From the NCBI GenBank assembly GCA_963805945.1, contig CAWDVP010000006.1:288001-352000 (forward strand): 64,000 bases of DNA, written 5' to 3'. Position 1 is the stretch's first letter, and each line of letters opens with the position of its first letter. Shown one piece after another: positions 5,508 through 58,785 of the stretch. Source of the DNA: Vulcanimicrobiota bacterium (lineage in GTDB: Bacteria > Vulcanimicrobiota > Vulcanimicrobiia > Eremiobacterales > Eremiobacteraceae). Made by a program: the position numbers and the translations under genes. The notes below the pieces were generated by a model that searched no databases, was not told the origin of the DNA, and saw only the letters and a program-made list of their open reading frames with translations.

Positions 5508-7058
5508 ATGAACGCCATGCCGCATTTCCGTACGTGCGGGCTGCGCGTTGCACCGCTTCTCATCCTCGTCTGCTGCGCTCCGTCATACGGCGCGGCCCTT
5601 CCGAGCGCGCCTCGGCAACCGGTCCCCTCGGTCTTGGCGCGCTTCGCCGGCTTCGAAGGCCGGATCACCTATGCCGGCCATCGCATCGATATCGTCTCCG
5701 CGCCGGAAGTGACCGGCACCGCCATTGTCTCGCGCAACGGCTTTGTCATCGAAGAACGCGGTCCGCGCTACGCTTTGCGCGCCGATGCGAGCGGCGTCGT
5801 CGTGCGTTCGGGCGCGACGGCTGCGCGCGCGGCGGATCCGCTCGACGCGGACGCGTTCGTCTATCCGTGGGCCATCGCGCTCGCCGCGCTCGCGAGCGGC
5901 GATCTTCGCGCCGGCGGGCATGCGGCGTGGCGCACGCCGATGGGCATGACCGTGTATACCGACGCCAGCGGCGCAGAGATCGAAGGTTTCGTCGGGCAAG
6001 CCGGCGCGCGGCTCTCCTTCACATTCGCCGGCTGGAGCGACGTCGCGGGTCTGCCGTTCCCGACGCGCGTCTTGCGCCTGCGCGACGGCGTGAGCGATGC
6101 GGCTTTTCAGATCGACCGCCTCTATGTCGCACGCGCGCCGGGGCCGGGAGACCGGCCGGTCGACGGTGCGCCGGTGGCGGCTGTGACCACCGGTCGAGTG
6201 AATTCGACCGCTCCAGCCATCATGGAAATGCGGCCGGCGCCGCCGTTTCCGTCGCGGCTCGTGCTCACATTCTTCGGCTTGATGCTGCTGGCGGTGGCGA
6301 TGGTCGCGTGGCTGCGGCGCGACGCGTTCACCTCGCGTCTGTGTGCGCGCGCGTCGCCCGACGCGCGAGGATGGCGGACGTCGTCGGCGGCTGCGTATGT
6401 CACGCCCGACGGTATCGTCCGGATCGAGGGCAACGACTACCACGTCGGACCTGAGTTCTTCGCGCGCGCGGTCGAAGTGAGCTTCTCCGCGCTCTTCTTG
6501 CGGGTGTCGGCGCCCGGCCTGTCACGTGCGGTCGTCCTGCCGCGGCGCCTGCCGCGCATCGGCACGCCGCCGCGCCGTCGCCGCGCCGCGTCGGCGGGCT
6601 TCAGCCTCGTCGAGTCGCTCGTCGCCGTGGGCTTCTTGTCCGTCGTGATCGTCGGCGCGATCTATCCGGCGCTCGTCGCGGTTGCGCACGCGGATCTCGT
6701 CGCCGGCCAAAAGCGTGCCGCGATCGCGGCCGCTGCCAACGCCCTCACGGACGAGGAGATGGCGTGCGCCTACGGCACGAGCGCGCCGACCGGCGTCACC
6801 ACCACCACGGTCGACGGCATGACGGTGACGGTCAGCGTCACAAGCTCATCCGTGGCCGGCGCGCGCGATATCCGCGTCACGGTCGCGAATGCGTCGGGCC
6901 GGACGCTCGCGGCGCTGGCCACCACCGTGGGTCCGCCGGTGCCGCCGCCCGGTTCGAGCGGCGCGGCGACGCCTCCACCTACGGCCGCGCCGACCGCGGC
7001 GCCGACGACCGCACCCGGACCTTCGGCGACCCCACCGTCTTCGTTCGGCGGCCGCTGA
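5508..7058 (+). CDS. Multidomain membrane protein with an internal type IV prepilin motif
   Basis: N-terminal signal-like segment, central TM (LVLTFFGLMLLAVAMVAWL), RRRRAASAG|FSLVESLVAVGFLSVVIVG at aa 364/365, Pro/Thr-rich tail. Confidence 0.7.
   Translation: MNAMPHFRTCGLRVAPLLILVCCAPSYGAALPSAPRQPVPSVLARFAGFEGRITYAGHRIDIVSAPEVTGTAIVSRNGFVIEERGPRYALRADASGVVVRSGATAARAADPLDADAFVYPWAIALAALASGDLRAGGHAAWRTPMGMTVYTDASGAEIEGFVGQAGARLSFTFAGWSDVAGLPFPTRVLRLRDGVSDAAFQIDRLYVARAPGPGDRPVDGAPVAAVTTGRVNSTAPAIMEMRPAPPFPSRLVLTFFGLMLLAVAMVAWLRRDAFTSRLCARASPDARGWRTSSAAAYVTPDGIVRIEGNDYHVGPEFFARAVEVSFSALFLRVSAPGLSRAVVLPRRLPRIGTPPRRRRAASAGFSLVESLVAVGFLSVVIVGAIYPALVAVAHADLVAGQKRAAIAAAANALTDEEMACAYGTSAPTGVTTTTVDGMTVTVSVTSSSVAGARDIRVTVANASGRTLAALATTVGPPVPPPGSSGAATPPPTAAPTAAPTTAPGPSATPPSSFGGR
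6191..6215 (-). repeat. REP-like palindromic element family A, in frame in CDS (GRVNSTAP)
   Basis: cggtcgagtgaattcgaccgctcca. Confidence 0.85.
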
Positions 7059-7741
7059 TGCGCCGGCGCCGAGGCATGGCCCTCATCACCGCGCTGCTCG
7101 TCGCCACGCTGGTGCTCGCGGTCCTTGCGTTCGTCGTCACCGTCGGCACGTCGCAGTTGCGGCGCGCCACCGAAGAGCTGTGGGAACTGCAGGCGCAAGC
7201 CGGCGCCGACGGAGCGGTGGGGTGGACGCGCGCGCTCATCGCGAATCGCCAGGGCGACATCGTCGCGGCGCTCGGCGACATGGCTGCGGCGAAGAGCACG
7301 TACGTGCTGACCATCGACGAGAACACGGAGGTGGATGCGTCGGTCACCTTCCATCTCGCGAACGTGGGAGCGGCGAACGATCACGTCGACGTCTTCTTGC
7401 AGCAGGACCCGTCGGTGGCCGAGACGCCGCTTCAGGTGAGCGTCACCGCGACGGTCGTCGTGGGCGGCAATGCGGTGGCGAGCCGCAGCACGACGGCACT
7501 GGTCCGCGTGTTCCGGCAGGCCGCTCCCTATTCGGAGATCACCGGCTTCATCGATAACTCGGGGCCGGTGGGTATCGATAGTCCCGGTGATCCCGCCGGT
7601 CAGGCCGGCAGCGCGACGGCGACCGAACTGCGTATCCACGTGTTCAAGACGGACGCCTCCGGCAACCCGATCGCAAACGATACGTTCGGCGATCAGACCT
7701 GGTCGGACGGCAACTCCGCGCCCTCCGGCGCGCTTCCATGA
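7058..7741 (+). CDS. PilX/GspK-like minor pilin
   Basis: MRRRRG|MALITALLVATLVLAV class III signal lacking Glu5; ATG overlaps the upstream TGA. Confidence 0.7.
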   Translation: MRRRRGMALITALLVATLVLAVLAFVVTVGTSQLRRATEELWELQAQAGADGAVGWTRALIANRQGDIVAALGDMAAAKSTYVLTIDENTEVDASVTFHLANVGAANDHVDVFLQQDPSVAETPLQVSVTATVVVGGNAVASRSTTALVRVFRQAAPYSEITGFIDNSGPVGIDSPGDPAGQAGSATATELRIHVFKTDASGNPIANDTFGDQTWSDGNSAPSGALP

Positions 7742-8277
7742 GATCCCGTATGGAGCGGTCGAATCTATTCGACCGCGGGATGACGCTGATCGAGTTGCTC
7801 ATCGTCGTCGCCATCCTCGCGATCGCGTGCGCGCTCATCTTCCTCTCGCCCGTGCGCGCGTATCTGCACGCTCGCGCCGCAGCCGACGCAGCGCAGACTT
7901 TTGCGCAGGACGTGGCGCTGCTGGAACGCGTGGCGCAGAACGGCGGCGCCAACGACGGCGCCACGCTGCAGATCGTCTCGACCAGTCCGCTCGTCTACGA
8001 ATGCTACTACGGGCGCCCGAACGCGATCGATCCGAACTCCGCGCTCGGCGCGTTGATCGTCCGCCGTAGCTACGATGACGTGACGCTGTCCGGCGGACCC
8101 ATCGACGCCACCACGCCGTTGCTGTTCGCGAGCAACGGAAGCGCGCAGTACGTCGCGGCCGGAGTCTGGGCGGACCAGCATCAGACGATCGAGATGACGC
8201 TCGCGCCGTCCGGAGACGAAGAACGCTCTTCCGCCATCGACCTGGACCTTTTCACCGGCGGGGTCTCACTGCGGTAG
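7738..8277 (+). CDS. Prepilin-type N-terminal cleavage/methylation protein (FimT/GspH-like)
   Basis: G|MTLIELLIVVAILAI motif. Confidence 0.85.
   Translation: MRSRMERSNLFDRGMTLIELLIVVAILAIACALIFLSPVRAYLHARAAADAAQTFAQDVALLERVAQNGGANDGATLQIVSTSPLVYECYYGRPNAIDPNSALGALIVRRSYDDVTLSGGPIDATTPLLFASNGSAQYVAAGVWADQHQTIEMTLAPSGDEERSSAIDLDLFTGGVSLR
7751..7776 (+). repeat. REP-like palindromic element family A, forms the prepilin leader (MERSNLFDR)
   Basis: tggagcggtcgaatctattcgaccgc. Confidence 0.85.
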
Positions 8278-8289
8278 CGCGACGACCTT

Positions 8290-11200
8290 CTAGCGGAAAT
8301 CACGCGTGGTCAACCCGTCCGTGAGGCGATCCAGGTCGAGCTTCCAGAAACGGCGAGCCAGCACGTTGATGTGGCCCTCATCCTTCTGGATGACGCCCTC
8401 CACGATGACCGCCGGCTCGTCGCGCGCGATCGGACGGTACTTCTGATAGATGTCCGGCCGGATGATCACGTTGACGAGCCCGGTCTCGTCCTCGAGCGTG
8501 GCGAAGACGAAACCTTTGGCGGTGCCCGGACGCTGACGCGTCGTGACCAGGCCTGCGACTTTCATGACCAGGCGATTGGGAAGACGCTCGAGGTCGGCGG
8601 CGCTGTAGATGCGCCGCGCGGTGAGCTGCTCGCGATAGAACTGCATCGCGTGGTAGGTGGGCGACAGGCCTAAGCCCCACAGGTCCGCACCGGCTTCTTC
8701 CACTTGATGCATGCGCGGCAGCGCCACCGGCGGTTCGTCGAGCGTCATGCCCCGTTCGAGCGCGCCGACGCGGGGCAAGATCGCGAGCCGCTGCACCTCC
8801 CACAGCGCCTGCCGGCGCGACAGCCCGAAGCACGCGAACGCGTCCACCGCGGCCAGCGACTCCAAGATCTCTTTGGAGAGCTGTGTCCTCAAGACGAAGT
8901 CGCGCAGATCCATGTACGGCCCCTTCTCTCGCTCAGCATTCAACATCGCTTTGTGCTTTTCGCCGATACCGCGCACTTGACTGAGCCCGATACGAATGGC
9001 ATAGCCGCGCGTCTCGAGCGGAAGCACGCGGCTCTGCGAAGCCGGGGCCTCTGAGGAGGCGAGAGCCGACGAAGGAGCCGCGGAGTCAAAATCTCCCTTA
9101 GCTCCGCGAGCGTGCCCCGGCGGCAGAGCCGCGTGCGCGCTCGCGACGGGCAGCCTCTCCGACGTGCATTCGTAGCGCGAGACGTTGACGTCCGGCGCCA
9201 GCACGGTGACCTTATGCCGGCGCGCATCCGCGATCAAAGATTCAGGCGAATAGAACCCCATCGGCTGCGCGTTGAGCAGCGACGCGTAGAACTCCGGCGC
9301 GTAACGCAGCTTGAGATATCCGGAGATGTAGACGATGAGCGCGAACGACGCGGCGTGCGATTCGGGGAAACCGAAGTCGGCGAACGCGCTGAGCATCTGG
9401 AAGAGCCGCTCGGCGACCTCGCGTGTGATGCCGTTGCGCGCCATGCCTTCGAGCAAGCGCGCGTGCAGGCGCTCCATCTTCTCGCGCGAGCGCTTGTGCC
9501 CCATCGCGCGGCGCAGCTCGTCCGCCTGGCCGGCCGTGAAGCCCGCGGTCTCGACGGCCATGCGCATGCCTTGTTCCTGGAAGAGCGGCACGCCCAAGGT
9601 GCGCTCGAGCACCGGCTTGAGCTTCGGATGCGGATAGGTCACCGGCTCGAGGCCTTTGCGCCGGCGGATGTAGGGATGCACCATATCGCCCTGGATGGGG
9701 CCGGGCCGGATGATCGCCACCTCGACGACGATGTCGTAGAAGCAGCGCGGCCGCAGGCGCGGCAGCGTCGCCATCTGCGCGCGCGACTCCACTTGGAACA
9801 GCCCGACCGTGTCCGCGGCGCACAGCATGTCGTAGACGCCCGGATCGTCGCACGCGCGCAGGTCCGCCAGATCGAGCGTCTCTCCGCGCACGCGCGCGAT
9901 CTCCTTGATCGCGAGCTCGATGGCGTCGAGCATCCCGAGCCCGAGCAGGTCGATCTTGATGAGCCCGAGCGCGGCGCAATCATCCTTATCCCAGCACAGG
10001 ATGGTGCGGTCGGGCATAGCCGCTTTCTCCAGCGGCGCCACTTCGATGAGCGGCGAGCGCGTGATCACCATGCCGCCGACGTGCTGGCTCAGGTGGCGCG
10101 GGAAGCTGTCGATGCGGCGGCACAGCTCGTAGAGCCGCTCCGCGGTGTCGCCGGCCAGATCCACGTGCAGCGCCGGCGGCAGCGCGGCGACCGCGCCCGC
10201 CACCTCAGCCGCCGACAGCGCCGGCGGCTCGCCGTGCGCGTCCAAGGACGGCAGGTGGGATGCGTTCCCCGAGCTTCGCTCGGGCACCACAGGCTCAGGC
10301 ACCACAGACCCGCGCGCGACGTCCGAGAGAGCGCGCGCCGCGCTGTAGCCGTCGAGCGACTTCGCGAGCGCGTCCACCTGATCGAGCGAGAGACCGATCG
10401 CCTTGCCGATATCGCGCACCGCGGAGCGCGCGCGGTAGCTGATGACCTCCGCGACCATCGCGCTATGCTCGCGGCCATAACGTTGATAGACGTATTGGAT
10501 GATCTGCTCGCGCTTCTCGCCCGAGGGGCAATCGAGGTCGATGTCGGGCAGTTCGGCGCGCTCTTCCGACAAGAAGCGCTCGAAGAGCAGCTTCAAGCCG
10601 ACCGGGTCCACGCTCGTGATGTTGAGCGCGTAGCAGACGGCCGAGTTGGCGGCCGACCCGCGGCCTTGCACGAAGATACCGCGCTCCATCGCGAAACGCA
10701 CGATATCCCAGACGATGAGGAAGTAACCGGCCAGATCTAGCTTCTCGATCACCGCGAGCTCATGCGCGATTTGCTTGCTCACCTCGGGCGTCACCGGACG
10801 GTAGCGCCGCCGCACGCCTTCTTGCACGAGCGCGTAGAGATACGAAAAGGCGGTCTCACCGCTCGGCAGCGGAAAATCGGGAAACTCGTTGCGTAGGCGC
10901 TCCAAGCGGAACGAACAGCGCTGCGCGATGGCGGCGCTGGCCGCGATCGCGCGCGGATGCTCGGGGAAGAGCCGCAGCATCGCCTGCGCCGAGCGCAAGG
11001 CGTATTCGCCGTTGGGCCGCAGCCGCGCGCCCGCGTCGTCAAGCGTGGTCTTGAGCCGGATGCAGGCGAGCACGTCGGCGAGCTCGCGGTGCTCCGGCAG
11101 CGCGTAGTGCACGCCGCCGGTGGCGACCAGTCCGAGCTCGAGGTTCTGCGCCACCGCCGCGAGCGCGCGGATGCGCGGGCCGTCGTCGGGCAGCAGATGC

Positions 11201-11691: not shown

Positions 11692-11692
11692 G

Positions 11693-13246
11693 TCAATCGA
11701 ACACGCCTTGCACGTACCAGCCGCCGTCGCGGCGGTCGCAGAACACGAGCAGCAGCGCGCCGGTGCTATCGACGAGCTGGTAGTAGTCGCGCTCGATCGG
11801 ACGCTCCCACCAGCTCTCGCTCAAGCGGAACGGGCCGGCGCGTGCGGCTGCAAGCGGCGGCGCGCTGATCGGCGCGGGCGGATCGACCAGGCGCAGCGCC
11901 GGCGCCCACGCGCCGTGCGAGGTCAACGTCGTCATACCTGACACATATGGAGCGGTCGAGTTCACTCGACCGTTTAGGGAGGTCGAATGTATTCGACCGT
12001 TGAGAGTGCTCCGGCCGTTCGGCTTTCGCGCCCGCGCGCCGTCGCGCGGCGAATCTAGGATGTCGCGCGGCGATTCGATCGGCGTCGCCCGCTGCATGCG
12101 CTCGGGCAGACGGGAACGCGACGGCGTAGATGCCAGCAACACCACCTCCTCACGCTGCAGCGCGGCCTGCAGCCGCGCGAGCGTCGCCGCCAACGCGGCA
12201 CGGCGCGATGCCGCCGTGCCGTCGAACAGCGAGAGCTGCGGCAGCGCCTGGCCGCACGGCGTGACGCGTGCCGTCACCGCCGCCACCGATTCCAGCATCT
12301 CGCGCGACTCGAGCGCGATGCGCGCGAGATGGAACATCGTCTCCGCATTGGCGCTCGGCTCGGCGAGCAGCACCGGCACGGTCGTCGACTCGGTGGAGAA
12401 CTCCAGCTCGATGTCGAGCCGATCGCACGTCTGCGCGCCGCCCGCCAGCCGCGCGGTGACGGCCGCGATGCAGCCGCGCGCGGCGACCAGCACCGGCTCG
12501 AGCCGGTCCACGGCGCCGTCGAATGCGAAGCGTTCCTGGAAGACGGCGGTCTCGTGCCGGGGCTGCAGACGCTCGTCGTCGTCGCCGCGGGCGAGCCGCT
12601 GATAGCGGCGCGCTCGCTCGCCGAAACGCAGGGCGAGCGGCCCGGTCGGCAACGCGGCGAGCTGCCCGAGCGTGCGCAAGCCGAGCAGATCGAGGCGATC
12701 GGCATCGCCAGGCGCGAGCGCAAGCAATGCGATGGGCAGCGGCGCGAGAAACGCCGTGCTGCCGCCCGGCGGCACGATGCTCACCCCGGCGCCCGCGACA
12801 AGCGCTGCGCACCGCGCGGTGAACTTATCGTCGGCGATGCCGGCGGCGCACGAAAAGCCGAGCGCGCTGACGAGCGAGAGCGCGGCGCCGATCGCGCCGG
12901 CTTCGCCCGACGGCAGCGAGGCCGCATCGAAGTAGCAGACGCCCGGCGCCGCGCCCTCCACGAGCGGACCGCACGTCTCGAGCGCCTCGAGCAGCTCGCG
13001 CGTGGCAGCAAGCTCCGCGGCGACATCGCGTGCGATGACCACCAGGCCCGGGCAGGCGGCACGCGCCTGCTTGGGCGTCATGCCGGCCACGACGCTGCCG
13101 GCGTTGCGGCTCGCACACGCAATCTCGCGCCGCGACTCGCCTTGCGCGATGGCGATCGGCCGGCCGCGTAAGGACGGCTTCGCGCGCACGCAGACCTCGA
13201 CCGAGAATTGCGGCAGGACCAAGCATGCGATGCGGCTGGCGATCAA
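11693..13246 (-). CDS. imuB: ImuB, catalytically inactive Y-family polymerase homolog
   Basis: IACLVLPQF, GMTPKQARAACPGL, LGLRTLGQLA, C-terminal GPFRLSESWW...RDYY...WYVQGVFD; TTG start overlapping the imuA stop is inferred. Confidence 0.88.
   Translation of the reverse strand: MIASRIACLVLPQFSVEVCVRAKPSLRGRPIAIAQGESRREIACASRNAGSVVAGMTPKQARAACPGLVVIARDVAAELAATRELLEALETCGPLVEGAAPGVCYFDAASLPSGEAGAIGAALSLVSALGFSCAAGIADDKFTARCAALVAGAGVSIVPPGGSTAFLAPLPIALLALAPGDADRLDLLGLRTLGQLAALPTGPLALRFGERARRYQRLARGDDDERLQPRHETAVFQERFAFDGAVDRLEPVLVAARGCIAAVTARLAGGAQTCDRLDIELEFSTESTTVPVLLAEPSANAETMFHLARIALESREMLESVAAVTARVTPCGQALPQLSLFDGTAASRRAALAATLARLQAALQREEVVLLASTPSRSRLPERMQRATPIESPRDILDSPRDGARARKPNGRSTLNGRIHSTSLNGRVNSTAPYVSGMTTLTSHGAWAPALRLVDPPAPISAPPLAAARAGPFRLSESWWERPIERDYYQLVDSTGALLLVFCDRRDGGWYVQGVFD
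11948..11999. repeat. Two tandem family A palindromes in frame in imuB (NGRIHSTSLNGRVNSTAP)
   Basis: tggagcggtcgagttcactcgaccg (11948-11972) and ggtcgaatgtattcgaccg (11981-11999). Confidence 0.85.
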
Positions 13247-13995
13247 TGCAGCGCTCTTGGCGGTCGAATAAATTCGACCGCTCCATGGACCGCGTCGACC
13301 GCTCCATAGGTGTCGTGGGTCAGCGCCACGCGGACGCTGCGGCCCGGTGCGATGGCGCGCGATTTGGCCACGTCGACCGACGTGACGCACCCGGCCAGGC
13401 GCCCGGCGCCATCGCCACCCTCTTCCCACAGCGGCGCGAGGCCGTGCGCGTGCAACCGCAGCGATGCGAACGACGCCACCGCCTGCACGTCGCCGTTCGA
13501 GACGATCACAAGCGCCGTGCCCGTCTTCTCCGCTTGCGCCGCGAGCCGCGCGCAGTGATGGGTCTGCAACGCAGCGGGCGAGCCGCTGCAATCGAGCACG
13601 ACGACCGCGCATGCGCCGCCGCGCACCAACGCATCCGCGGCGCGGCGCGCTGCGGCCGCAGCGCGCGGACGCACCACCACGAGCCGGCGCAGATCGACGC
13701 CCGCGGCTTCCGCCACCGGCGCGAAGAACGTCCTTTGAGGATCGATATACGCGCCGATGCCGCCGCCCTGCGTGCAGGCCGCGAGGGCGGCCAGCGCGAG
13801 CGTCGTCTTGCCCGAGGAAGGGGCGCCGAAGATCTCGGTCAGGCGGCCGATGGGTATGCCGCTCGGCCCTAAGAGATCGTCCAAAACGGCGATGCCGCTC
13901 GGCGTGCCGGCCCGCGCAGGAGCGATGGCGTGGGGTACGGCTCCCTGCCAACGGCGCTCGAGCGCAGCCCGTAACTGCACGATAGAGGACGACAT
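13243..13995 (-). CDS. imuA: ImuA, RecA-like protein
   Basis: RecA-like fold with EIFGAPSSGKTT; first gene of the imuA-imuB-dnaE2 cassette. Confidence 0.85.
   Translation of the reverse strand: MSSSIVQLRAALERRWQGAVPHAIAPARAGTPSGIAVLDDLLGPSGIPIGRLTEIFGAPSSGKTTLALAALAACTQGGGIGAYIDPQRTFFAPVAEAAGVDLRRLVVVRPRAAAAARRAADALVRGGACAVVVLDCSGSPAALQTHHCARLAAQAEKTGTALVIVSNGDVQAVASFASLRLHAHGLAPLWEEGGDGAGRLAGCVTSVDVAKSRAIAPGRSVRVALTHDTYGAVDAVHGAVEFIRPPRALH
13260..13308 (-). repeat. Family A palindrome plus a half copy at the imuA C-terminus (YGAVDAVHGAVEFIRPP)
   Basis: gcggtcgaataaattcgaccgctccat (13260-13286) and gtcgaccgctccata (13295-13308). Confidence 0.85.
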
Positions 13996-14003
13996 GGGAG
14001 ACT

Positions 14004-14032: not shown

Positions 14033-14076
14033 GACTCTCGTAAGGTTGCCCCAAAGCAGGCACGAAAGCCCCGGAG

Positions 14077-15714
14077 ATGAGCGATTTCGCCGCCACAGCC
14101 GAGGCTATCATACGCGCTCGGCTCAAAGACGACCCCATCGACGCCACCCGGGCCGGCATCCACGACTACGACGGCGAGTTGCCCGATATCACGGCCGAGG
14201 GCGTCGCCCAGTCGCATGAAGACATCAAAGCGCACCTGGCGAGTCTCGCCCGCTTCGCGCCGGGCGATCTCACGCCCGCCGAGCGCATCGACCATCGCCT
14301 GCTCGGCTCGACGCTTGACGTCGAATCGCGCGAACAGACCGAGCTGCAGCCGGAGAAACACGATCCGTCGCTGTACCCGTCGATCGCCGCCGAAGGCGTC
14401 TACTCCCTCCTGGCGCGCGACTTCGCGCCGCTGGCGGAGCGGCTGCCGTCGATCGTGTCGCGCTTGCGCGGCATCCCCGAGATGCTGGCGGCCGGCGCGC
14501 GCAATCTCGTCCGTTCGCCGCGCATCTGGACGGAGATCGCGCTCGAAGAGACCGCCGGCGTCGTCGAATTCTTCGAGCAGACGGTAGCGCCGCTCGTCGA
14601 CGATCGAAGCGGTCGAATGAATTCGACCGCTCCAAAGGCCTTGCACGACGCCATCGCCGCTCTGCACGAGTACGGACGTTTCCTCAAGGAGCAGCAGCTG
14701 CGCCGCGACGGCATGCCGTTCGCCATCGGGCGCGACTTCTTCGACTACAAGCTCAAGCACGAGCATTTCTTGCCGTACACCGCGGAGACGCTGCTCGCAT
14801 TCGGTGAAGGCGCAGTGCGCGAGACGGAGCTCCGTCTCCAAGAGGTCGCTGCGCTCATCGAGCCTGATGCGCAATGGCCGGCGCTCGTCGAACGGCTGCG
14901 CGAGGACCATCCGGCGGAGGGCGATCTGCTATCCGAATATCGGCGTGGACTCGCGGAGGCGCGCCGCTTCGTCGTCAAGCGGGACCTGGTGAGCATTCCC
15001 GCCGGCGAATCGCTGGAGATCGTCGAGACGCCCATCTTCGTGCGTCCGACGATACCGTATGCGGCCTACGTACAGCCCGGCGTCTTCGATGCGCGCCAAC
15101 AGGGGCTGTATTACGTCACGCCGGTGAGCGAGCACGGCGACGCGACCGAGCGCCACGAGCAGCTGCAGGGCCACAACCGCTTCGGCATGCTGCTCACCAA
15201 CGTGCATGAAGGCTACCCCGGACACCACCTGCAGCTCGTCATCGCCAATCGTGCGCCGTCGCTCGTGCGCCGTTTCCACGACAGCACCGTCTTCTGCGAG
15301 GGCTGGGCGCTGTATTGCGAACAGCTCGTGCTCGACGAAGGCATGAGCGACGACCCGCGCAGCAGGCTCTTCCAGCTCAAGGACCAGCTCTGGCGGGCGT
15401 GCCGCGTGGTCATCGACGTCAAGCTGCAGACCGCTCAGATGACGTTCGACGAAGCCGTCTCGATGCTCGTCGACGTGGCCAAGCTGGAGCATGTCAACGC
15501 GGTGGGCGAGGTGCGCCGCTACACGCAGTCGGCCACGCAGCCGATGTCGTACCTGGTGGGCAAGCAGCAGATCATGGAACTGCGGAACAGCGAGCGTCGG
15601 CGGCTCGGGGCGGGCTTCGGGCTGCGCGATTTCCACGACCGTCTCTTGGCGCAGGGTTCGCTGCCCGTGGCCCTGATCGAAGAGTCTTTCGCGCCGATGG
15701 CGCAAGGGAGATAG
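14077..15714 (+). CDS. DUF885 family putative metallopeptidase
   Basis: HEGYPGHHLQ, EGWALYCE, RVVIDVKL, SYLVGK motifs. Confidence 0.88.
   Translation: MSDFAATAEAIIRARLKDDPIDATRAGIHDYDGELPDITAEGVAQSHEDIKAHLASLARFAPGDLTPAERIDHRLLGSTLDVESREQTELQPEKHDPSLYPSIAAEGVYSLLARDFAPLAERLPSIVSRLRGIPEMLAAGARNLVRSPRIWTEIALEETAGVVEFFEQTVAPLVDDRSGRMNSTAPKALHDAIAALHEYGRFLKEQQLRRDGMPFAIGRDFFDYKLKHEHFLPYTAETLLAFGEGAVRETELRLQEVAALIEPDAQWPALVERLREDHPAEGDLLSEYRRGLAEARRFVVKRDLVSIPAGESLEIVETPIFVRPTIPYAAYVQPGVFDARQQGLYYVTPVSEHGDATERHEQLQGHNRFGMLLTNVHEGYPGHHLQLVIANRAPSLVRRFHDSTVFCEGWALYCEQLVLDEGMSDDPRSRLFQLKDQLWRACRVVIDVKLQTAQMTFDEAVSMLVDVAKLEHVNAVGEVRRYTQSATQPMSYLVGKQQIMELRNSERRRLGAGFGLRDFHDRLLAQGSLPVALIEESFAPMAQGR
14608..14634 (-). 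repeat. Family A palindrome in frame in the DUF885 gene (SGRMNSTAP)
   Basis: agcggtcgaatgaattcgaccgctcca. Confidence 0.88.
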
Positions 15715-24750: not shown

Positions 24751-26558
24751 GAGCGAGCCTTCTTCTTCTGTTTGCGACGAGCCGCTGCGACCGGCTTGCG
24801 CGCTATCGCCTTGGACGAGGGTGTTCTCGCGCTCGGTCTGCTCGGTCTGCTGGGATCAAACGCCGGCCCTGTCTCGCCTTTGACATAGCGCCCGGGGGCG
24901 GCTTCGCCGTCGGGCAGCGCATACGGCGTCACGAGCTTGCCTGCGCGCGGCTCGAACCACTTGGTCCAATCCTCCCACCAACTGCCCTCGCGCCGCGTGG
25001 CAGATCCGAGCCACGCTTCGGCGTTCTCACCTTTGACGGCGCGCGGTTTGGTCCAATACGAAGCCTTGGCGTTGCCCGGCGGGTTGACGATGCCGGCGAC
25101 GTGGCCTGAATTGGTGAGCGTGAACTTCGCTTCGCCGCCGACGAGCTGCGTCGCGGCGTAGGTCGAGCGCCACGGCGCGATGTGATCGCCTTCGGCGCCG
25201 AGCACGAACAGCGGCGTGCGGATGCGGGCGAGATCGATCGGCGTCCCCTCGATGACGAAAGCGTTGCGTGTGGCGATCGCGTTGTGCAGGTAGCAGGCGC
25301 GCAGGTACTGCGAGTGCATGAGAGCCGGCATGCGCGTGCTGTCGCCGTTCCAGGCCAAGATGTCGAACGCGGGCGGGGTCTTGCCCATGAACCAATTGCT
25401 GACCACGTAGCTCCAGATCAGGTCGTTGGCGCGCATGGCGTTGAACGTGCCGGCCATGTCGCTCGACTCGAGGAAGCCGAGTTCGCCCATCTTCTGCTCG
25501 AGCCGCGAGATCGTCGTCTCGTCGGTGAAGACGCCGAGGTCGCCGGGCTCGGCGAAATCGATGAGCGTGTTGGTCACGGCGGCGGTGCCGATGCGATCCG
25601 CCTTGCCCTTCGCCGCCAGATAGGCGAGCGCGATGAGCGCCATCGTGCCGCCGAGGCATAGCCCGTGGAGGTTCACTTTCTTCGCCTTGGTGATGCGCTG
25701 GACGGCGTCGAGCGCGGCGAGCAGGCCTTCGCGCAGATAGTCGTCCATGGAGAAGGCGCCCATCGTCTCATCAGGATTGCGATAGCTGATCATGAAGGTC
25801 TGGTGGCCGTGGCGCACCGCCCATTCGACGAACGACCGCCCCGGCGCCAGATCCATGATGTAGAACTTGTTGATCCAGGGCGGGCTGCATAGTAGCGGCG
25901 TCTCGTGCACCTTCGCCGTCTGCGGCTCGTAGGCGATCAGCTCGATGAGCGCGTTGCGAAACACGACACGGCCCGGCGTCGCGCCGAGATTGCGCCCGAG
26001 CACGAACGATGAGGTGTCCACCTGGCGCGGCTGGCCGTTGTTGTGCTCGACGTCGTCGAGGAAATTCTTCAGCCCCTGGACCAGGCTCGAGCCGCCGGTG
26101 TTCATCGCCTCTTTGACCACGGCGGGATTCATCCACGGCACGTTGCTCGGCGCGATCGCGTCCATCATCATCCTGATGGCGAAACGCGCCTTGCGCCGCG
26201 TCGTCTCCGGCAAGCGCGATGCGTCCACCAATTGCAGCGCGGCCTGCGAGCGCACGAAGTAATCCTCAAGCGCGCCGTGCAGGAACGGATTGGACTTCCA
26301 GGCGGGGTCGGCGAAGCGTTTGTCGCCGTGCAACGGCGCGGCGACGGGGTCTGGGGTCTCGCCGTTCATGCGCCGCAGGGTGTTCAGGCCGACCGTCTGT
26401 TCGGCGATCGAGAGCCCCGCGAGCCAGGTCGCGAGCAGGGTCGGGTTCATCATCACGTCGGCGGCGACTGCGCGCACCGCATCGCCGAGCGACGCCGGGT
26501 CGAAGCCTGCGACGTCGAGGCCGTAGCCGAACTCCTCGGGCGGTATCGAGCCGATCAC
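24747..26558 (-). CDS. phaC: Polyhydroxyalkanoate synthase (class I/II-like)
   Basis: PPWINKFYIMDL, lipase box GLCLGG, WNGD, DHIAPW, SGHVAG, SWWEDW. Confidence 0.93.
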   Translation of the reverse strand: MIGSIPPEEFGYGLDVAGFDPASLGDAVRAVAADVMMNPTLLATWLAGLSIAEQTVGLNTLRRMNGETPDPVAAPLHGDKRFADPAWKSNPFLHGALEDYFVRSQAALQLVDASRLPETTRRKARFAIRMMMDAIAPSNVPWMNPAVVKEAMNTGGSSLVQGLKNFLDDVEHNNGQPRQVDTSSFVLGRNLGATPGRVVFRNALIELIAYEPQTAKVHETPLLCSPPWINKFYIMDLAPGRSFVEWAVRHGHQTFMISYRNPDETMGAFSMDDYLREGLLAALDAVQRITKAKKVNLHGLCLGGTMALIALAYLAAKGKADRIGTAAVTNTLIDFAEPGDLGVFTDETTISRLEQKMGELGFLESSDMAGTFNAMRANDLIWSYVVSNWFMGKTPPAFDILAWNGDSTRMPALMHSQYLRACYLHNAIATRNAFVIEGTPIDLARIRTPLFVLGAEGDHIAPWRSTYAATQLVGGEAKFTLTNSGHVAGIVNPPGNAKASYWTKPRAVKGENAEAWLGSATRREGSWWEDWTKWFEPRAGKLVTPYALPDGEAAPGRYVKGETGPAFDPSRPSRPSARTPSSKAIARKPVAAARRKQKKKARS

Positions 26559-27349
26559 ATGTACAAGCCTCCGTTGACGTCGTACACTGATCCCGTGATG
26601 TAGCCGGCGCTATCGTCGATCAGGAAGCGCACCACGCGAGCCACTTCGTCGGGCTGGCCGAGCCGACGCTCGGGCGATCGCTGGATCGCCGCCGCTAACG
26701 CTTCTTTCGGCATCGCCGCGACCATGTCCGTATTGATGAAACCGGGCGCGACCGCGTTCACCGTGATGCCGCGGCTGGCCACTTCCAGCGCGACCGTCTT
26801 GGTCAAGCCCATCACCCCGGCTTTGGCGGCTGCGTAGTTCGCTTGGCCGATGTTCCCGGTATGGCCGACGACCGAGCTGATGTTGACGATGCGGCCGTAC
26901 TGGCGCTCCGTCATCGAATCGAGCGCCGCCTTGATCATGAAAAACGGCCCCGACAGATTGACCTGCAGGACCGCTTGCCACTCTTCGATCGTCATCTTGC
27001 GGACCGTGTGGTCCGCGGTGATGCCGGCGTTGTTGACGAGAAAATCGATGCGTCCGAACTCGGCGACCACGCTATCCACGACGCGCTTGCACGCCTCGTA
27101 TTGCGCGACATCGCCTTCTTGGAAGTGCACGAGACTGGCGGCGCCGTTGAGGGAACTGCGCAAGGCGTCGGTGCGCTGCCGATCCGGCTCGAGCCCCATG
27201 ACGATGACGTTCGCGCCGTCGGCCACGAGCATATTGGTGATGGCGGCCCCGATGCCGCGGGCACCGCCCGTGACGATGCCGACCCTGTTGGAAAGAGGTT
27301 TGAGTGCCATGCCGCTAGGTTTACCTAGCGCCTGCTGTGTCCCCTCCAT
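26555..27349 (-). CDS. phaB: Acetoacetyl-CoA reductase / 3-oxoacyl-ACP reductase (SDR)
   Basis: TGGARGIG, NNAGIT, YAAAK; adjacent to phaC; start could be 27310. Confidence 0.82.
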   Translation of the reverse strand: MEGTQQALGKPSGMALKPLSNRVGIVTGGARGIGAAITNMLVADGANVIVMGLEPDRQRTDALRSSLNGAASLVHFQEGDVAQYEACKRVVDSVVAEFGRIDFLVNNAGITADHTVRKMTIEEWQAVLQVNLSGPFFMIKAALDSMTERQYGRIVNISSVVGHTGNIGQANYAAAKAGVMGLTKTVALEVASRGITVNAVAPGFINTDMVAAMPKEALAAAIQRSPERRLGQPDEVARVVRFLIDDSAGYITGSVYDVNGGLYM

Positions 27350-41238: not shown

Positions 41239-41264
41239 GGGCCGACCTAAAGGTCGGCCCCTAC
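41239..41264 (-). repeat. Intergenic GTAG-type REP (family B), also a likely terminator of HU
   Basis: Minus strand gtaggggccgacctttaggtcggccc followed by tttt. Confidence 0.75.
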
Positions 41265-41284
41265 ATGCCATCGGCGTGGGATGA

Positions 41285-44320: not shown

Positions 44321-46736
44321 TCACTTCAACGTCACGACGCTGACGCCGGAACCGCCCTCGCGGTCGCCCGCGTTCGCGATGGCGGCGACCTGCGCGTGGC
44401 CTTTGAGCATTTGGCGGATGCCTTTGCCCAGCTGGCCGGTGCCCTTTCCGTGGATGATACGCAGTTCGGCTGCGCCGGTGAGCAGCGCGCTATCGAGCGC
44501 TTTGTCGACGAGCGGCATCGCTTCGTCGACGCGCATGCCGCGCACGTCGATCTCGGTGGGAGCGTCCTGGGCGAGCGGGATTCCCGAGCGACCCGAGCTG
44601 CGCTCGGGCACTACCGCGCCTCCTGCGGGTGCGATATCGGCGGTCAGCTCGGCGCGCGGCACCACCACCTTCACGCTGCCCATCGTGATGAGCGCGTCGC
44701 GATCGTAGAGCTCGCTGATGATGCCGGGCGCATTGAAGCTGCGCACGAACACCCTGTCGCCGGCGCCGAAGTCCGGGCGCGCCGGATCGCCTGGTGCCGC
44801 CGCTTCCAGCCCGAGGCTCTTGCGCATGTCCGACAGCGTCTGCTGCAGGTCCGGCGCTGCTGCCGCGCCGGTCTGCCGGCGGCGAGATTCGCCGCTGCGC
44901 GCCGCCTTCTCCATCAATTCGGTGCGGACTTGACGCACTGCGTCGTCGAGCACGACGGCGGCGCGGCGTTCGAATTGCGTCCGTTCCCGTGCGAAGGCCG
45001 CCGCCTGCGCCTGGAGCTCGCGTTCGAGTCCAGTGGCGCGCGCGGCGAGCGCGTCAAGTTCGGCTTGCTTCTTCTGCATCGCCGCCCGGTCGGCGGCCAG
45101 GGCCTCGAACGCCCCCTCGAGCCGCCTGCCCTCTTCGCCCAGCAGGGCTTCCGCCCGCGCGATCATCGGCGCCGGGAGCCGCAGCGCCCGAGCGAGCGGA
45201 AACGCGAGGGACTGCCCCGGCACGCCGAGCGCGAGGACGTAGGTCGGCGCATTCGTCTCGGCGGCGAAGAGCATCGAGGCGTTGGCGACGCGCGGCGCGG
45301 CCGCGGCGAAGACCTTGAGCTGGGTGTAGTGCGTCGTGACGACGACGCGCGCGCCCACGATCAAGAGGGCTTCGACGAAAGCACGAGCGAGCGCGGCGCC
45401 GGCCACGGGCTCGGTGCCGCTGCCGATCTCGTCGACGAGCACGAGCGACGCGTCGGTGGCGCGCGTGAGCGCGCCGCGCAGCGCCTCGAGATGCGCGGAA
45501 AACGACGAGAGGTTCTGCGCGATCGACTGCTCGTCGCCGAGCGAGCACTCGATGCGATCGAACCAGCCGATCTCCGTGCCCGGCTTCGCGGGCAATGGCA
45601 CCCCCGCGTATGCGAGCAGGCAGAACAAACCCATCGTCTTGAGCGCGACGCTCTTGCCGCCCATGTTCGGCCCGGAGATCACCAGCGCATCGAAGTCGTA
45701 GCCGATCTCCACGTCGAGCGGCTGCGCGGTGCGCGTGAGCAGCGGATGGCGGCCGCCGACGATGCGCAGTGCGTGCGCGCTCGTCATGGTCGGGCCGGTG
45801 CGCCTCAAGCGCGATGCCCCAGCGCGCACGCGCACCGAGCCCATCCAATCGCGCGACGAGCGCGGCGTTCGTGCGCAGCTCGTCCGCGCGTCCGCCTACC
45901 TGTGAGGTCAGCTGCGCGAGGATGCGCCCGATCTCACGCTCTTCCGCCGATTCGAGCGCGCGCAGCTTGTTGTTCGCTTCGAGGCATGCCATAGGCTCGA
46001 TATAGGCGGTCGAGCCCGACGAGGATTCGTCGTGCACGACGCCGGGGAACTCGCCCGCGAACTCCTTGCGCACCGGCACGACGTAACGGCCGGCGCGCAC
46101 GGTGACGACCGGCTCCGACAGCATCTTGGCGGTGCCGGGATTGCGGACGATCTGCGCGCAGCGGTCGCGGATCTCGTCGTGCAGTTTGCGCTGCTGCCGA
46201 CGGATGCGATCGAGCTCCGCCGAAGCGTTGTCGGCGACGCGTCCGTCCGGTTCGATGGCCGCTTCGATGCGCCGCGCGAGGTCGGAAGTGTCGAGCCGCT
46301 GCGAGAGCAGCGCCTTGAACGCGCCGCGCGGCTGCGCGCTGGCGTCTGGCGTGACGGCCTTGGAAGATCGACCCGTCGGTCGAATGAATTCGACCGCTCC
46401 AGCTCGTGTGGGCGTGGCGGCGCGGGCGACGTCGCGCAACGCGCTCTCGGCGGTCGCGATCGCCCGCAGATCCGCGCCCGGCAGCGCTGCTCCCTTTTCG
46501 GCGCGGACGAGCAGCTCGCCGACATCCACGACGCCCCCGAAGGCGATATCGCCGCCGGCGTGGAGGAACGCGCCGGCGTCTTCGGCGAGCGCCTGCTCGG
46601 CATCGGCGGCCGCTAGGCCTTCGAGCGGGGCGAGCGCGAGCGCGGCGTTCTTGCCGGGCTCGCATGTGGTCTGTGCGGCGATCCGCTCGACGACCTCGGT
46701 GAACTCGAGCGCCTCGAGCGCGTGCGCGTCAGCCAA
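44321..46736 (-). CDS. mutS2: Endonuclease MutS2, frameshift near 45793
   Basis: LEALEF start, VHDESSSGST, GPNMGGKS, LSSFSAH, DEIGSGT, Smr IIHGKGTG; split in two ORFs. Confidence 0.9.
44592..44614 (-). repeat. REP-like family C element in frame in mutS2 (VVPERSSG)
   Basis: Minus strand gtagtgcccgagcgcagctcggg. Confidence 0.78.
46377..46401 (-). repeat. Family A palindrome in frame in mutS2 (GAVEFIRP)
   Basis: cggtcgaatgaattcgaccgctcca. Confidence 0.88.
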
Positions 46737-51491: not shown

Positions 51492-51512
51492 TCCAGCATG
51501 TTGTGTATGTGG

Positions 51513-54580: not shown

Positions 54581-54596
54581 GGAGGACCTCCGGAAC

Positions 54597-54622
54597 GAGC
54601 CGACCTGAAGGTCGGCCCCTAC
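54597..54622 (-). repeat. GTAG-type REP (family B) whose GTAG supplies the GH125 stop codon
   Basis: Minus strand gtaggggccgaccttcaggtcggctc; near-identical to 41239-41264. Confidence 0.75.
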
Positions 54623-55953
54623 ATACCGCTTGCGAGCGCGGGGACGGGCAGGGGCGACGATCCCATCACCCGGTCGAGCACCAATTCCGAGAACAGCGCG
54701 CACGGCCAACCGAAGTTCGAGCGCGTGAATTTGCTGGGGTCGTTCGGATCGAAGGATTCGTGCAGCAGGTGGTCGCCCGTATCCGACGCCTGCAGCTGGC
54801 CGAGCATCGCCTCGACCTCGTTCGGATCGCTCGCGGTGAGCCCTTCCATGACGAGCGCGAGCGGCCAGACATAGCCGTGCGGCGTGTGCGGGCTGCCGAT
54901 GCCGCGCGCGTACTTGCCCGCGAAATAGTACGGGTTGTCGGGCGAGAGCACGAAGCGCCGCGTGTTGGTGTAGATGCCGGAGTTCGCGGATGCGAAGCCC
55001 ATGTACGGGATCGACAGCAGACTGGGGATGTTCGCGTCGTCCATCAGGACGCTGTGCCCGAGGCCGTCCACCTCGTACGCGTAGATGTAGCCGTATTTCG
55101 CGGTGTAGACGATGCCGTACTTGTTGATGCCGTCGACGATGCCGGCGCGCAGCTGTTCGACCTCGTCGTGCTTGAGGCCGTCGCGCCACACCTGCGCCTC
55201 GATGTCGCGCAGCTCTCCCAGCACGACCGCGGCGAACATCTCTTCGGGGATGTTATAGCCGTAGGTCGCCGGATCGTCGCTGGGCCGGAACGCCGTCCAC
55301 ACCATCCCGGTGACCGCCACGGGCGCGCCCGCGCCGTTGTTGACGAGTTCGCGGTGGCGGTAGGTCGAGTAGCTGTGGTCGCGCTCAAGCTGCATGAGGC
55401 CGAACGCCTTCTCGAACGCCGCCTTCACCTCCGGGGTGAACACCGACGCGTCGTGCGTCTGCTTCCAGTACATCCATGCGAGTTGGATCGGATAGAGCAG
55501 CGAGTCGAGCTCGTACTTCTCCTCGGCGACCTTGTAATCGCGGTTGAACGCGTTCGCATACGGATCGAGCAGCATGTTCTTGGCTTCACGCGCGATGACG
55601 CCGCGCAGCATGTTGCGCACCTCGCCGTCGCCCGCGAAATAGAGGTACGGCCTCACCTGTGCGCTCGCGTCGCGCAGCCACATCGCGCCGATGTCGCCCG
55701 TGATGACGTAAGTGGTGTTGTCCTCTTCGAACGACACGTCGTTGCGCATGGTGGACAGCAAGCACTGGCTGTACAGCTGGCCGGTGTCGATCGTGCCGCC
55801 ATGGTACTCGGCAGCGGCGGCGGAAATAGCTCGCAGCTCGGTCGCGCGGGCCGCGGAGACCGAAGCGAGCACAAAAATGACCCCGGCGAGTGCCGTGGCC
55901 CATATGAACCGGCTGCGGACCAAATCCATCTGGTTCCGGGCGCTCCTCACCAA
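54619..55953 (-). CDS. Glycoside hydrolase family 125 (exo-alpha-1,6-mannosidase-like), secreted
   Basis: ITGDIGAMWLRDAS, KYELDSL, FRPSDD, MDDANIPSLL, IGSPHT. Confidence 0.92.
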   Translation of the reverse strand: MVRSARNQMDLVRSRFIWATALAGVIFVLASVSAARATELRAISAAAAEYHGGTIDTGQLYSQCLLSTMRNDVSFEEDNTTYVITGDIGAMWLRDASAQVRPYLYFAGDGEVRNMLRGVIAREAKNMLLDPYANAFNRDYKVAEEKYELDSLLYPIQLAWMYWKQTHDASVFTPEVKAAFEKAFGLMQLERDHSYSTYRHRELVNNGAGAPVAVTGMVWTAFRPSDDPATYGYNIPEEMFAAVVLGELRDIEAQVWRDGLKHDEVEQLRAGIVDGINKYGIVYTAKYGYIYAYEVDGLGHSVLMDDANIPSLLSIPYMGFASANSGIYTNTRRFVLSPDNPYYFAGKYARGIGSPHTPHGYVWPLALVMEGLTASDPNEVEAMLGQLQASDTGDHLLHESFDPNDPSKFTRSNFGWPCALFSELVLDRVMGSSPLPVPALASGM

Positions 55954-56031
55954 ATCACCGCTTCAACCCCCAAGTCCTCTCGAACGTTCGCAGGTGAGCG
56001 ACATGAAATCCTTCGGTGAGCCGCATCTCTT

Positions 56032-57240: not shown

Positions 57241-57244
57241 GCGC

Positions 57245-57964
57245 TCAGACCGGCGACTTGAGTTTGTAGCCAAGCCCGTGCACGGTGTAGAGGTAGCGCG
57301 GCGCGGCGGCATCGTCCCCGAGCGCCCGGCGCAATCGGCGCACGTGCACGTCGACGGTGCGCGGATCTCCCTCGTAGTCGAATCCCCAGATGGTCTCGAT
57401 GAGCTGGTCGCGCGTGAACACGCGGCCCTCGTTGCGCGCGAGCAGGTACAGAAGATCGAATTCGCGCGGTTTGAGCTCGACGGCGGCACCCGCCAGCGTG
57501 ACCTCGCGACGTTCCGCGTCTACGATGAGCTGCCCGACGCTGCAGCATCTGCCGCTGTGCGGCGGCGACTGCCCGCTGCGGCGCATGACCGCGCGCACGC
57601 GCGCGGCGAGCTCGCGCGGTGAGAACGGTTTGGCGAGATAGTCGTCAGCGCCGAGTTCCAGGCCGACGATGCGATCCACCTCCGCGCCGCGAGCCGAGAG
57701 CACCACGATCGGCACCTGCGATTCCTTGCGCAGCGCACGGCACACCTCGAGCCCGTCCAGGCCGGGCAGGCCGATGTCGAGCACGACGATGTCCGGCGCG
57801 TGCTCCCTGGCCCGGCGCAGGGCGGCGACGCCGTCGACCGCCACGCTCACGTCGAAGCCCTCCGCCGCGAGCGTATCCTTTAGAAGGGCGGCGATGTGCG
57901 GCTCGTCGTCCACGACGAGCGCATGGCGGCGCACTGGGGTCTCCGCGGCGGTATGTGGCGTCAT
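57245..57964 (-). CDS. OmpR/PhoB-family response regulator
   Basis: VVDDE, LDIGLP, GADDYLAKPF, RTVDVHVRRLR. Confidence 0.95.
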   Translation of the reverse strand: MTPHTAAETPVRRHALVVDDEPHIAALLKDTLAAEGFDVSVAVDGVAALRRAREHAPDIVVLDIGLPGLDGLEVCRALRKESQVPIVVLSARGAEVDRIVGLELGADDYLAKPFSPRELAARVRAVMRRSGQSPPHSGRCCSVGQLIVDAERREVTLAGAAVELKPREFDLLYLLARNEGRVFTRDQLIETIWGFDYEGDPRTVDVHVRRLRRALGDDAAAPRYLYTVHGLGYKLKSPV

Positions 57965-58785
57965 TTTTCGAGGAACCCGACGGAGGCCATGAGCGGGCCG
58001 CCTTGGCCGTTGCGCCGATATGAGTGCAGCAGCCCCTCGTTGCAGCGCGTGCACGCCGTGGCGATATGGATCGAGCGTTGCGGCACGCCGGCGTCACGCA
58101 GCAGCGCGAACAGCACCGCGCCGAGGTCTAGCGACACCGAGTCGTCGCGCTGCCGCGGCGCCTTGAGCACATCCGGCAGGTCGATCGCCCCCTCGATCTT
58201 GACGAAATGCGCGGCGACTTCCGGGCCGACCTCGAAGCAGCACCGTCCGAGGTGCGGTCCGACCACCGCGACGAAGGCGGCCGGGTCGCCACCCTGATCC
58301 TCGAGCGCCTTCGCCGCAGCGCCGACGATGCCGGCGGCGGCGCCGCGCCAGCCCACGTGCACGAGCGCGAAGCAGCCGTTCTCCGGATCGACGAGCCAGA
58401 GCGGCGCGCAATCGGCGGTGCGCACGATGAGCAGGTCGGCGTTGGACGCGGTCCATACGCCGTCCGCCTCGGGCAGATCCGGGCGGTCGAATGAATTCGA
58501 CCGCTCCATATCCTGCGCGGGAAGAATGATCGCGCCGTGCACTTGCGCGATGCTGCGCAGAATCCGCCCATCGTTCCAGCCATGAGCGGTCGTCCAGCGC
58601 AGCGCGTCCGCGTCAAGGCGCGCATCGATCTCCACCGGGCTGCAGAAGCCGAGGACGCCCGTGTCCACAAGCGCGGTCGCGACGATGAGCGATCCGCCTG
58701 CCGGCGCCTTATGGAGCTCGAAGCCGCCGCCCAGATCCTCGTAGTTCCAAGGATCCGGTACGTCGGCGCCTATCCTGAACTTCAT
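57961..58785 (-). CDS. pgeF: YfiH/PgeF family protein
   Basis: QVHG, TADCAP, HVGWRG, CCFEVG, CTRC, SYRR. Confidence 0.88.
   Translation of the reverse strand: MKFRIGADVPDPWNYEDLGGGFELHKAPAGGSLIVATALVDTGVLGFCSPVEIDARLDADALRWTTAHGWNDGRILRSIAQVHGAIILPAQDMERSNSFDRPDLPEADGVWTASNADLLIVRTADCAPLWLVDPENGCFALVHVGWRGAAAGIVGAAAKALEDQGGDPAAFVAVVGPHLGRCCFEVGPEVAAHFVKIEGAIDLPDVLKAPRQRDDSVSLDLGAVLFALLRDAGVPQRSIHIATACTRCNEGLLHSYRRNGQGGPLMASVGFLEK
58483..58509 (-). repeat. Family A palindrome in frame in pgeF (MERSNSFDR)
   Basis: gcggtcgaatgaattcgaccgctccat. Confidence 0.88.

Follow-up and report, generated by a model that had tools for sequence, protein, structure and literature searches.

A GGAG-tagged REP family in a Vulcanimicrobiota genome: mostly intergenic, with in-frame copies in variable regions of proteins

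Repetitive extragenic palindromic (REP) elements are lineage-restricted, high-copy palindromes of 20 to 40 nt with a short perfect stem, a sequence-specific loop, and a foot tag defined as GTAG or GTGG (Quentin et al. 2018, PMC6006769; subclass 2.5). They lie predominantly outside genes. GTAG-REPs that include intragenic copies have been reported from many species (Di Nocera, De Gregorio, and Rocco 2013, PMC3733652), with 70 rows for O. terrae by our own count; as far as the portions of that paper used here go, such copies give rise to peptides of 7 to 8 residues in several frames, their hosts include dnaE2 and uvrA, and a role as flexible linkers is proposed. A REP family with coding copies is, as such, an ordinary and known event. 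In this report, we describe a GGAG-tagged hairpin, here called family A, that is present in a 64,000-nt stretch of a Vulcanimicrobiota soil bacterium of the bacterial family Eremiobacteraceae (assembly GCA_963805945.1, contig CAWDVP010000006.1, positions 288,001 to 352,000; "the window"), and we ask how it is distributed, what might have moved it, and what happens to it at orthologous sites.

Two other described systems are close enough to be instructive. In the group 3 REPtrons of Marinomonas (Mb) and Stenotrophomonas (Sm), a REP-associated tyrosine transposase (RAYT) is flanked by inverted REPs with a short perfect stem and a foot tetranucleotide, and TnpA-Mb requires bases T12, T13, and A15 of the loop (Corneloup et al. 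2021, PMC8266576, in the parts consulted). Family A resembles these in its short perfect stem and in having a tetranucleotide at the foot, and its TTNA loop is identical to the REP-Mb loop tested there. It departs from them in its tag: published tags are GT[AG]G, and GGAG keeps the AG selected for CT cleavage in Mb. The Rickettsia palindromic elements RPE-1, RPE-4, and RPE-6, as treated in PMC3733652, likewise place palindromic DNA in frame in ordinary genes, but they are CGTC tagged or much longer and have no known dedicated transposase; family A, at 24 to 25 nt and linked to RAYTs, has neither a CGTC tag nor a long palindrome. The first-pass annotation of the window had held that in-frame coding insertions are known mainly from these long Rickettsia elements, which the 7- to 8-residue GTAG-REP inserts of many species contradict.

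The family A consensus is TG(G/T)AG-CGGTCGAA-TTYA-TTCGACCG, 25 nt in all, and forms a hairpin with an 8-bp stem that is perfect in 135 of the 164 copies in the genome. The loop is T-T-Y-A (T 0.97, T 0.83, Y, A 0.97). Single copies fold as DNA hairpins of 7 to 8 bp with a free 5-nt tag (z of -3.4 to -5.0). The GGAG form lacks stop codons in five of six frames, as was first reported, and the view that the conserved unit is DNA holds as well. The window was scanned with TGGAG-CGGTCGAA-N4-TTCGACCG, and a close variant of the family pattern matched 9 times against a shuffle mean of 0.01. All eight copies and the half copy are real, with starts now at 13261, 14610, 58484, and, for the half copy, 13294 (previously 13260, 14608, 58483, and 13295). 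They are as follows.

6191 to 6215, minus strand: family A REP with one stem mismatch; antisense GRVNSTAP in a variable linker of a 516-aa membrane/pilin-like protein (5508 to 7058, plus strand).
7751 to 7775, plus strand: family A REP; MERSNLFDR, most of the leader of a type IV prepilin (7738 to 8277, plus strand), directly before G|MTLIE.
11948 to 11972, plus strand: family A REP whose stem is the variant CGGTCGAG; opens a direct pair in the ImuB C-terminal linker (11693 to 13222, minus strand), GRVNSTAP.
11975 to 11999, plus strand: family A REP with decayed tag; second of the ImuB pair, GRIHSTSL, in the frame of GRVNSTAP.
13261 to 13285, minus strand: family A REP; GAVEFIRP in the C-terminal tail of ImuA (13243 to 13995, minus strand).
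13294 to 13306, minus strand: family A half copy (tag and left arm); ImuA tail, just upstream of the 13261 copy.
14610 to 14634, minus strand: family A REP; antisense GRMNSTAP, residues 178 to 186 of a DUF885 protein (14077 to 15714, plus strand), possibly between two helices.
46377 to 46401, minus strand: family A REP; GAVEFIRP in a variable loop in the N-terminal half of MutS2.
58484 to 58508, minus strand: family A REP; MERSNSFDR in a variable loop between QVHG and DGVWT of PgeF/YfiH (57961 to 58785, minus strand).

Every one of the eight copies sits in an open frame of its host gene, as the first-pass annotation had it. It counted four frames; there are three, since GRIHST and GR(M/V)NSTAP share one: antisense GR(V/I/M)(N/H)ST (6191, 11948, 11975, and 14610), sense MERSNxFDR (7751 and 58484), and sense GAVEFIRP (13261 and 46377).

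Is the window typical? It is not. The source genome (2.3 Mb, 82% complete) holds 164 family A loci at no more than 3 mismatches, 74 of them exact, and by our own hexamer-model gene caller (2,267 genes, 82% coding), 94 are intergenic, 15 lie over a gene end, and 55 are within genes, against 16%, 3%, and 80% expected for random placement. The claim that the element is found only inside genes therefore stands for the window and fails for the genome, by the very scan that had been set beforehand as the test to refute it; a window in which all copies are coding is an unusual sample. Among the 55 coding copies, 33 are internal, 17 C terminal, and 5 N terminal (terminal meaning within 25 residues of an end). 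Neither the prepilin copy nor the mutS2 copy was picked up as coding by the caller, nor were four more whose positions fall within genes of the congener G002; counting these puts the upper estimate at about 61 of 164. G002 itself (2.39 Mb) has 35 of 137 copies in genes and 102 outside, and further loci with the exact pattern in Candidatus Eremiobacterota records (58 of 61 loci used) have 23 of 69 copies in genes. Thus, in both the source genome and G002, placement is predominantly extragenic, as for REPs in general. The exact pattern is present in 3 of 6 congeners and in 0 of 54 other relatives.

The tag on this one stem varies between species. In the source genome, GGAG is carried by 128 of the 164 copies and GTAG by 20, while in G002, GTAG is carried by 114 of 137; the GT[AG]G definition fits the family as a whole, but not the dominant variant of the source genome. 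The family does not fit the REPIN type (inverted REP doublets): an inverted family A partner lies within 130 nt of just 22 of the 164 copies, 114 stand alone, and the window contains no inverted doublet. One inverted doublet lies in frame in ribH (contig C8, 47629 to 47684), and two more (C2, 471321 to 471391, and C8, 35983 to 36045) map inside G002 genes and were not called coding in the source genome, possibly marking further frameshifted genes. In 63% of copies, the base before the tag is A. The resulting ATGGAG combines a start codon with an overlapping GGAG word that resembles a ribosome-binding site, and a few genes begin inside a copy (C3, 93708, and the region of window position 7751).

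A sister family, B, and a third family, C, share the genome. Family B (consensus TGTAG-GGGCCGAYC-TTYA-GRTCGGCCC, 27 nt) flanks a RAYT in the form TGTAG-GGGCCGATC-TTTA-GATCGGCCC, and family C is of the type GTAG-TG-CCCGAGC-GAA-GCTCGGG. Their copies in the window are as follows; both family C copies were overlooked in the first pass.

41239 to 41265, minus strand: family B REP, intergenic.
54597 to 54623, minus strand: family B REP, over a gene end.
10268 to 10291, minus strand: family C REP, in frame in dnaE2, VVPERSSG.
44592 to 44615, minus strand: family C REP, in frame in the MutS2 C-terminal linker, VVPERSSG.

The three families differ sharply in how often they are coding: 55 of 164 copies for A, 2 of 146 for B, and 25 of 69 for C (A versus B, Fisher p 3e-15), with the same picture when only G002 gene calls, that is, homology, are used (30 of 101, 2 of 75, and 12 of 40). 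Within one genome, then, A and C are about 35% coding and B 1%, a contrast that does not appear in the consulted parts of PMC3733652. Three frames of family B bear stops, and these account for only part of the gap between A and B. Family B was absent from all five congeners searched and has its own RAYT in place, and it is therefore probably young. For family C, no flanked RAYT was seen among the 30 RAYT loci inspected in the class (NF047646 matches).

What do the coding copies do to their hosts? A G002 homolog exists for 49 of the 55, with conserved residues on both sides in 26, on the left only in 18, and on the right only in 5. Mapping at the DNA level succeeded for 26 of the 33 internal sites; G002 has no REP at 22 of these, a family A copy at 2, and a family C copy at 2. 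Across 1,580 reciprocal best hits between the source genome and G002, 31 of 39 internal REPs fall in variable regions, which make up 5.6% of columns, and the remaining 8 look conserved because G002 also has a REP-derived peptide there. The coding copies survive in variable loops, linkers, leaders, and tails, and they often replace loop sequence rather than lengthen the loop. At 30 sites inside G002 genes, the net length change is divisible by three in 25. The sites are lineage specific, but the copies are not clean gains of eight residues. Of the idea of a GGAG-tagged, REP-like mini-element that adds peptide loops, the tag, the REP nature, and the in-frame reading were upheld, and the specificity for genes and the addition of loops were not. 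Stem mismatches occur in 13 of 55 coding copies and 16 of 109 others, no more than a slight trend toward coding copies being older and more decayed. The GRINSTAP/T frame is used by 15 of 33 internal copies in the source genome and 15 of 21 in G002. When the family A frames are scored for loop propensity on a scale derived from these genomes, it comes out highest.

The individual hosts illustrate this. The peptide at 6191 is missing from three orthologs of the 516-aa protein, whose linkers are of similar length. Four orthologs of the prepilin have unrelated short leaders, and the leader encoded by the 7751 copy would presumably be cut off by the prepilin peptidase. All five orthologs of ImuB have a longer linker, and G002 carries a family C REP in it; the ImuA tails of five orthologs are variable and differ from the copy-derived tail. 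The DUF885 protein is 5 to 7 residues longer than three orthologs and shows no gain over two others, and a low-confidence AlphaFold model (5 sequences, mean predicted local distance difference test score 47) hints at a placement of the REP peptide between helices 149 to 174 and 184 to 209. The MutS2 loop at 46377 is 23 residues longer than in the congeners G001 and G003, and G002 has two family C REPs there.

The first pass saw no mobilizing transposase in the window. A RAYT exists elsewhere in the source genome, flanked by family B and not family A. This sole RAYT (NF047646, 87 bits against a cut-off of 80; C3, gene at 119693 to 120082, with flanks 119549 to 120181) forms an intact REPtron with two inverted pairs of family B, 2+2. 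NF047646 matches were found in 24 of 301 genomes of the class, in 17 of 31 of the bacterial family, and in 0 of 6 congeners. Outside the bacterial family, few of the sampled genomes of the class have a RAYT (6 of 269), and nearly every RAYT has its own hairpin. A search for RAYTs flanked by the family A hairpin, proposed in the first pass, did not find exact flanks but did find near-identical GGAG hairpins in the bacterial family: inverted copies of GGAG-CGGTCGAGA-TTYA-TCTCGACCG lie on either side of RAYTs in genomes G009, G018, and G024, and this hairpin occurs in 108 to 226 exact copies in these genomes. Second RAYTs of G009 and G018 are flanked by GTAG-CGGTCGAGC-TTTA-GCTCGACCG, and two metagenome RAYTs, among the first 7 of 33 loci whose flanks were inspected, have GGAG-CGGTCGACC hairpins. 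These flanking hairpins are one base pair longer than family A and identical to it in tag, stem base, and loop. In a tree of 26 rows (weak or truncated matches omitted, G016 as one row that carries no claim), the seven RAYTs with G(G/T)AG-CGGTCGA hairpins form one clade (support 99/98), with the resident RAYT outside it. The GGAG-tagged REP class is tied to one RAYT clade.

Taken together, we consider it very probable that family A is a non-autonomous REP of the group 3 type, spread by a RAYT, and that its coding peptides are tolerated passengers. A RAYT (TnpA-REP, an HUH/Y1 transposase) of the G(G/T)AG-CGGTCGA clade would disperse family A as single-stranded DNA, binding the tag, the stem, and the T-T-N-A loop and, by analogy with group 3 enzymes, cutting and rejoining at nearby dinucleotides; the agreement of the T-T-Y-A loop with the bases needed by TnpA-Mb, as given in the consulted parts of PMC8266576, favors this link. 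Insertions would reach gaps and genes alike, most genic events would be purged, and the survivors would keep the frame in loops, linkers, leaders, and tails that were already variable. Selection at the protein level would favor the frame giving a small, polar peptide rich in Pro, Ser, and Thr (GRINSTAP/T) and so explain the frame bias, though a codon-phase bias of the cut site may also be a source of it. The peptides would be produced, and the cognate RAYT would have been lost or have escaped assembly.

Several observations weigh against this account. No RAYT with exact family A flanks was found in the source genome (82% complete, with its only RAYT outside the clade and flanked by family B), in a PF01797 search of 7 genus genomes, in the NF047646 search of the 301 class genomes (which included the 6 congeners), or in a protein search of 5 congeners with the CGGTCGA clade; a two-arm family A REPtron pattern gave 0 matches in metagenome contigs, and the exact hairpin was absent beside RAYTs in the 7 flanks inspected among the 33 metagenome loci. 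REPIN doublets have been argued to be the mobile unit (PMC3337134), whereas most family A copies are single, as given above. The net change at the 30 sites ranges from -30 to +63 nt (median +3), and as these are not clean insertions, the inserted unit and its cut sites cannot be read off; nor do the empty sites reveal the unit, since the nearest genomes compared are only about 75 to 80% identical in DNA. Finally, frame use in families A and C correlates only modestly with loop propensity (rho 0.49, p 0.03; the points are not independent), and family C makes no use of one of its loop-like frames.

Could the hairpin instead be a signal in DNA or mRNA, a protein-binding site or an element of mRNA stability or pausing, that the host keeps uniform by selection and gene conversion, the part played by a RAYT being ancient? 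The 74 exact copies in a genus where the cognate RAYT was not found would suit this, as would the perfect stems of 42 of 55 coding copies, the sites common to species at about 81% protein identity, and the position of 83 of 94 intergenic copies between co-directional or convergent genes. Against it, 22 of 26 coding sites are empty in the congener G002, and G001 and G003 each have at least one variant copy and no exact consensus copy; the intergenic copies are evenly split by strand (26 sense, 21 antisense), and the host genes have no common function. We therefore regard it as improbable. The first-pass proposal of a mini-element specialized for coding sequence, supplying useful peptide loops, fares worse and is now very hard to credit. 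It could draw on the eight of eight coding copies in the window, on the contrast between A and B, and on the loss of the TAG stop that GTAG carries and GGAG does not, but it is largely refuted by the depletion of coding copies genome-wide (34% against 80% at random). Moreover, family C and the GTAG form in G002 (35 of 137) are as often coding, the peptide varies with frame and strand, orthologs function with other loops, and at most 28 of 1,225 variable regions contain a recognizable REP.

The TAG stop was considered in its own right. It acts as a stop codon in 15 copies in G002 and 2 in the source genome, and GGAG, lacking it, may explain some C-terminal read-through. As an explanation of internal coding copies, it was rejected: G002 has 21 of 137 copies internal, mostly GTAG, and within the source genome, 6 of 20 GTAG and 45 of 128 GGAG copies are coding. 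A genome-wide avoidance of GTAGC in the source genome was rejected also (observed/expected 0.96 in both genomes). The other way to dispose of the coding copies is to call them artefacts, whether false gene calls, read-through over intergenic REPs at gene ends, or assembly errors. It is true that 22 of the 55 lie within 25 residues of a terminus, that the gene calls come from our own hexamer model, and that the assembly has at least one frameshift, in mutS2, and artefacts may explain some terminal copies. As a general account, it seems to us scarcely tenable, since 26 of 55 copies have, on either side, residues that the G002 ortholog conserves, and the congeners show the same pattern. Contigs of an independent run (X1; about 88 to 95% identical) run across both places without deletion, which speaks against an assembly artefact there: by gap counts, 3 gap letters fall at the imuB pair and 0 at the DUF885 copy.

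The labels of the host genes were mostly confirmed: Pfam and NCBIfam back imuA, imuB, DUF885, mutS2, pgeF, and the prepilin, with several NCBIfam scores below cut-off. The "pilin fusion" of 516 aa has no match in Pfam or NCBIfam but does have full-length orthologs. Its single open reading frame comprises an N-terminal domain, a membrane segment, an internal prepilin-like motif (AGFSLVESLV), and a pilin-like tail, and long open reading frames in G002, G003, and G006 are 53 to 56% identical to it. The mutS2 frameshift, of one base, lies at 45780 to 45800 on the minus strand, near 45790 and away from the hairpin; the split falls between ...EAHRP and TMTSAHALRIVGGRHPLL, five congeners have a single open reading frame of about 800 to 840 aa, and it is either an assembly error or a recent pseudogene. 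Elsewhere in the window, two 300-nt copies at 26555 to 26854 and 27366 to 27665, 72% identical, belong to tandem short-chain dehydrogenase-like genes.

How, then, does the element fare at sites shared between species? Orthoswitching of REPs, loss of RAYTs, and abundant REPs without a RAYT of their own are described by Nunvar et al. (2013, PMC3686654), and the REPORTH preprint (10.1101/2024.10.14.618302) describes extragenic sites that are orthologous but carry a mixture of REPIN types. In species-specific variants, in abundance without a RAYT, and in differing REP types at one orthologous site, the present families agree with what the consulted parts of both report; the difference is that here the switch also occurs within orthologous coding sites, altering the encoded residue (T/P, V/G). 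Of 16 orthologous family A pairs with both flanks matching, 11 combine GGAG in the source genome with GTAG in G002, and in 5, the two genomes share GTAG; 3 further pairs with decayed tags were set aside, and a third species was excluded because its loci were chosen by the GGAG pattern. If each species drew its tags independently according to its own usage, 76% discordance would be expected, and inheritance with 10 to 25% change per site gives p 3e-8 to 3e-4. That the tag follows the species at shared sites suggests overwriting in place. Several pairs, however, are offset by up to 30 nt, which makes nearby reinsertion indistinguishable from overwriting, and opposite orientations could come from loss of different halves of an ancestral doublet, without new events. 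In one loop, three genomes each use a different reading frame. Reuse of a loop across families gave 2 cases against 0.27 expected in a formal test (p 0.03), a weak result that does not cover the frameshifted mutS2, and at 14 of 74 mapped family B copies, G002 has A or C in the corresponding place, compared with a background of 8% of gaps (p 0.002).

We tentatively entertain, at somewhat less than even odds, the idea that REP sites, even in essential genes, undergo rewriting in place. The hairpin already there would attract the RAYT or templated repair and be overwritten by the species' current variant, often with loss of neighboring bases. This would explain why tags track the species with a discordance close to that of independent draws, why one loop (in ImuB, in both MutS2 loops, and in the loop with three reading frames) has different families, strands, or frames in different species, and why the net length change is near zero. 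It would also explain why the newly arrived 27-nt family B could take intergenic and not coding sites, as a 25-for-27 swap would shift the frame.

In general make-up, the families resemble the GTAG-REPs of PMC3733652, in the portions consulted: a tag and a short perfect stem, mostly intergenic copies with a minority in frame, peptides of 7 to 8 residues, singles and dimers, dnaE2 and repair genes as hosts, stop codons from the TAG of the tag, and several families per genome. The dominant tag is what differs. The string GGAG occurs 0 times in the main text of PMC3733652, GGAG was not found as a REP tag in the consulted parts of PMC8266576 or PMC6006769, and in PMC2817692 and PMC3337134, it occurs only within REP sequences and never as a tag. 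A search of papers readable without subscription found none on Eremiobacterota together with REPs. A GGAG class lies outside the published GT[AG]G definition and would be missed by REP-finding rules built on it.

Overall, the RAYTs of this bacterial family (loci L019 to L048) offer rich material for the study of RAYT-REP coevolution, and orthologous coding sites that follow the current REP variant make the question of insertion versus overwriting testable by the comparison of strains. If overwriting is true, REPs would act as a permanent source of mutation in particular protein loops, and the GGAG tag would be a new guide with a RAYT clade of its own.

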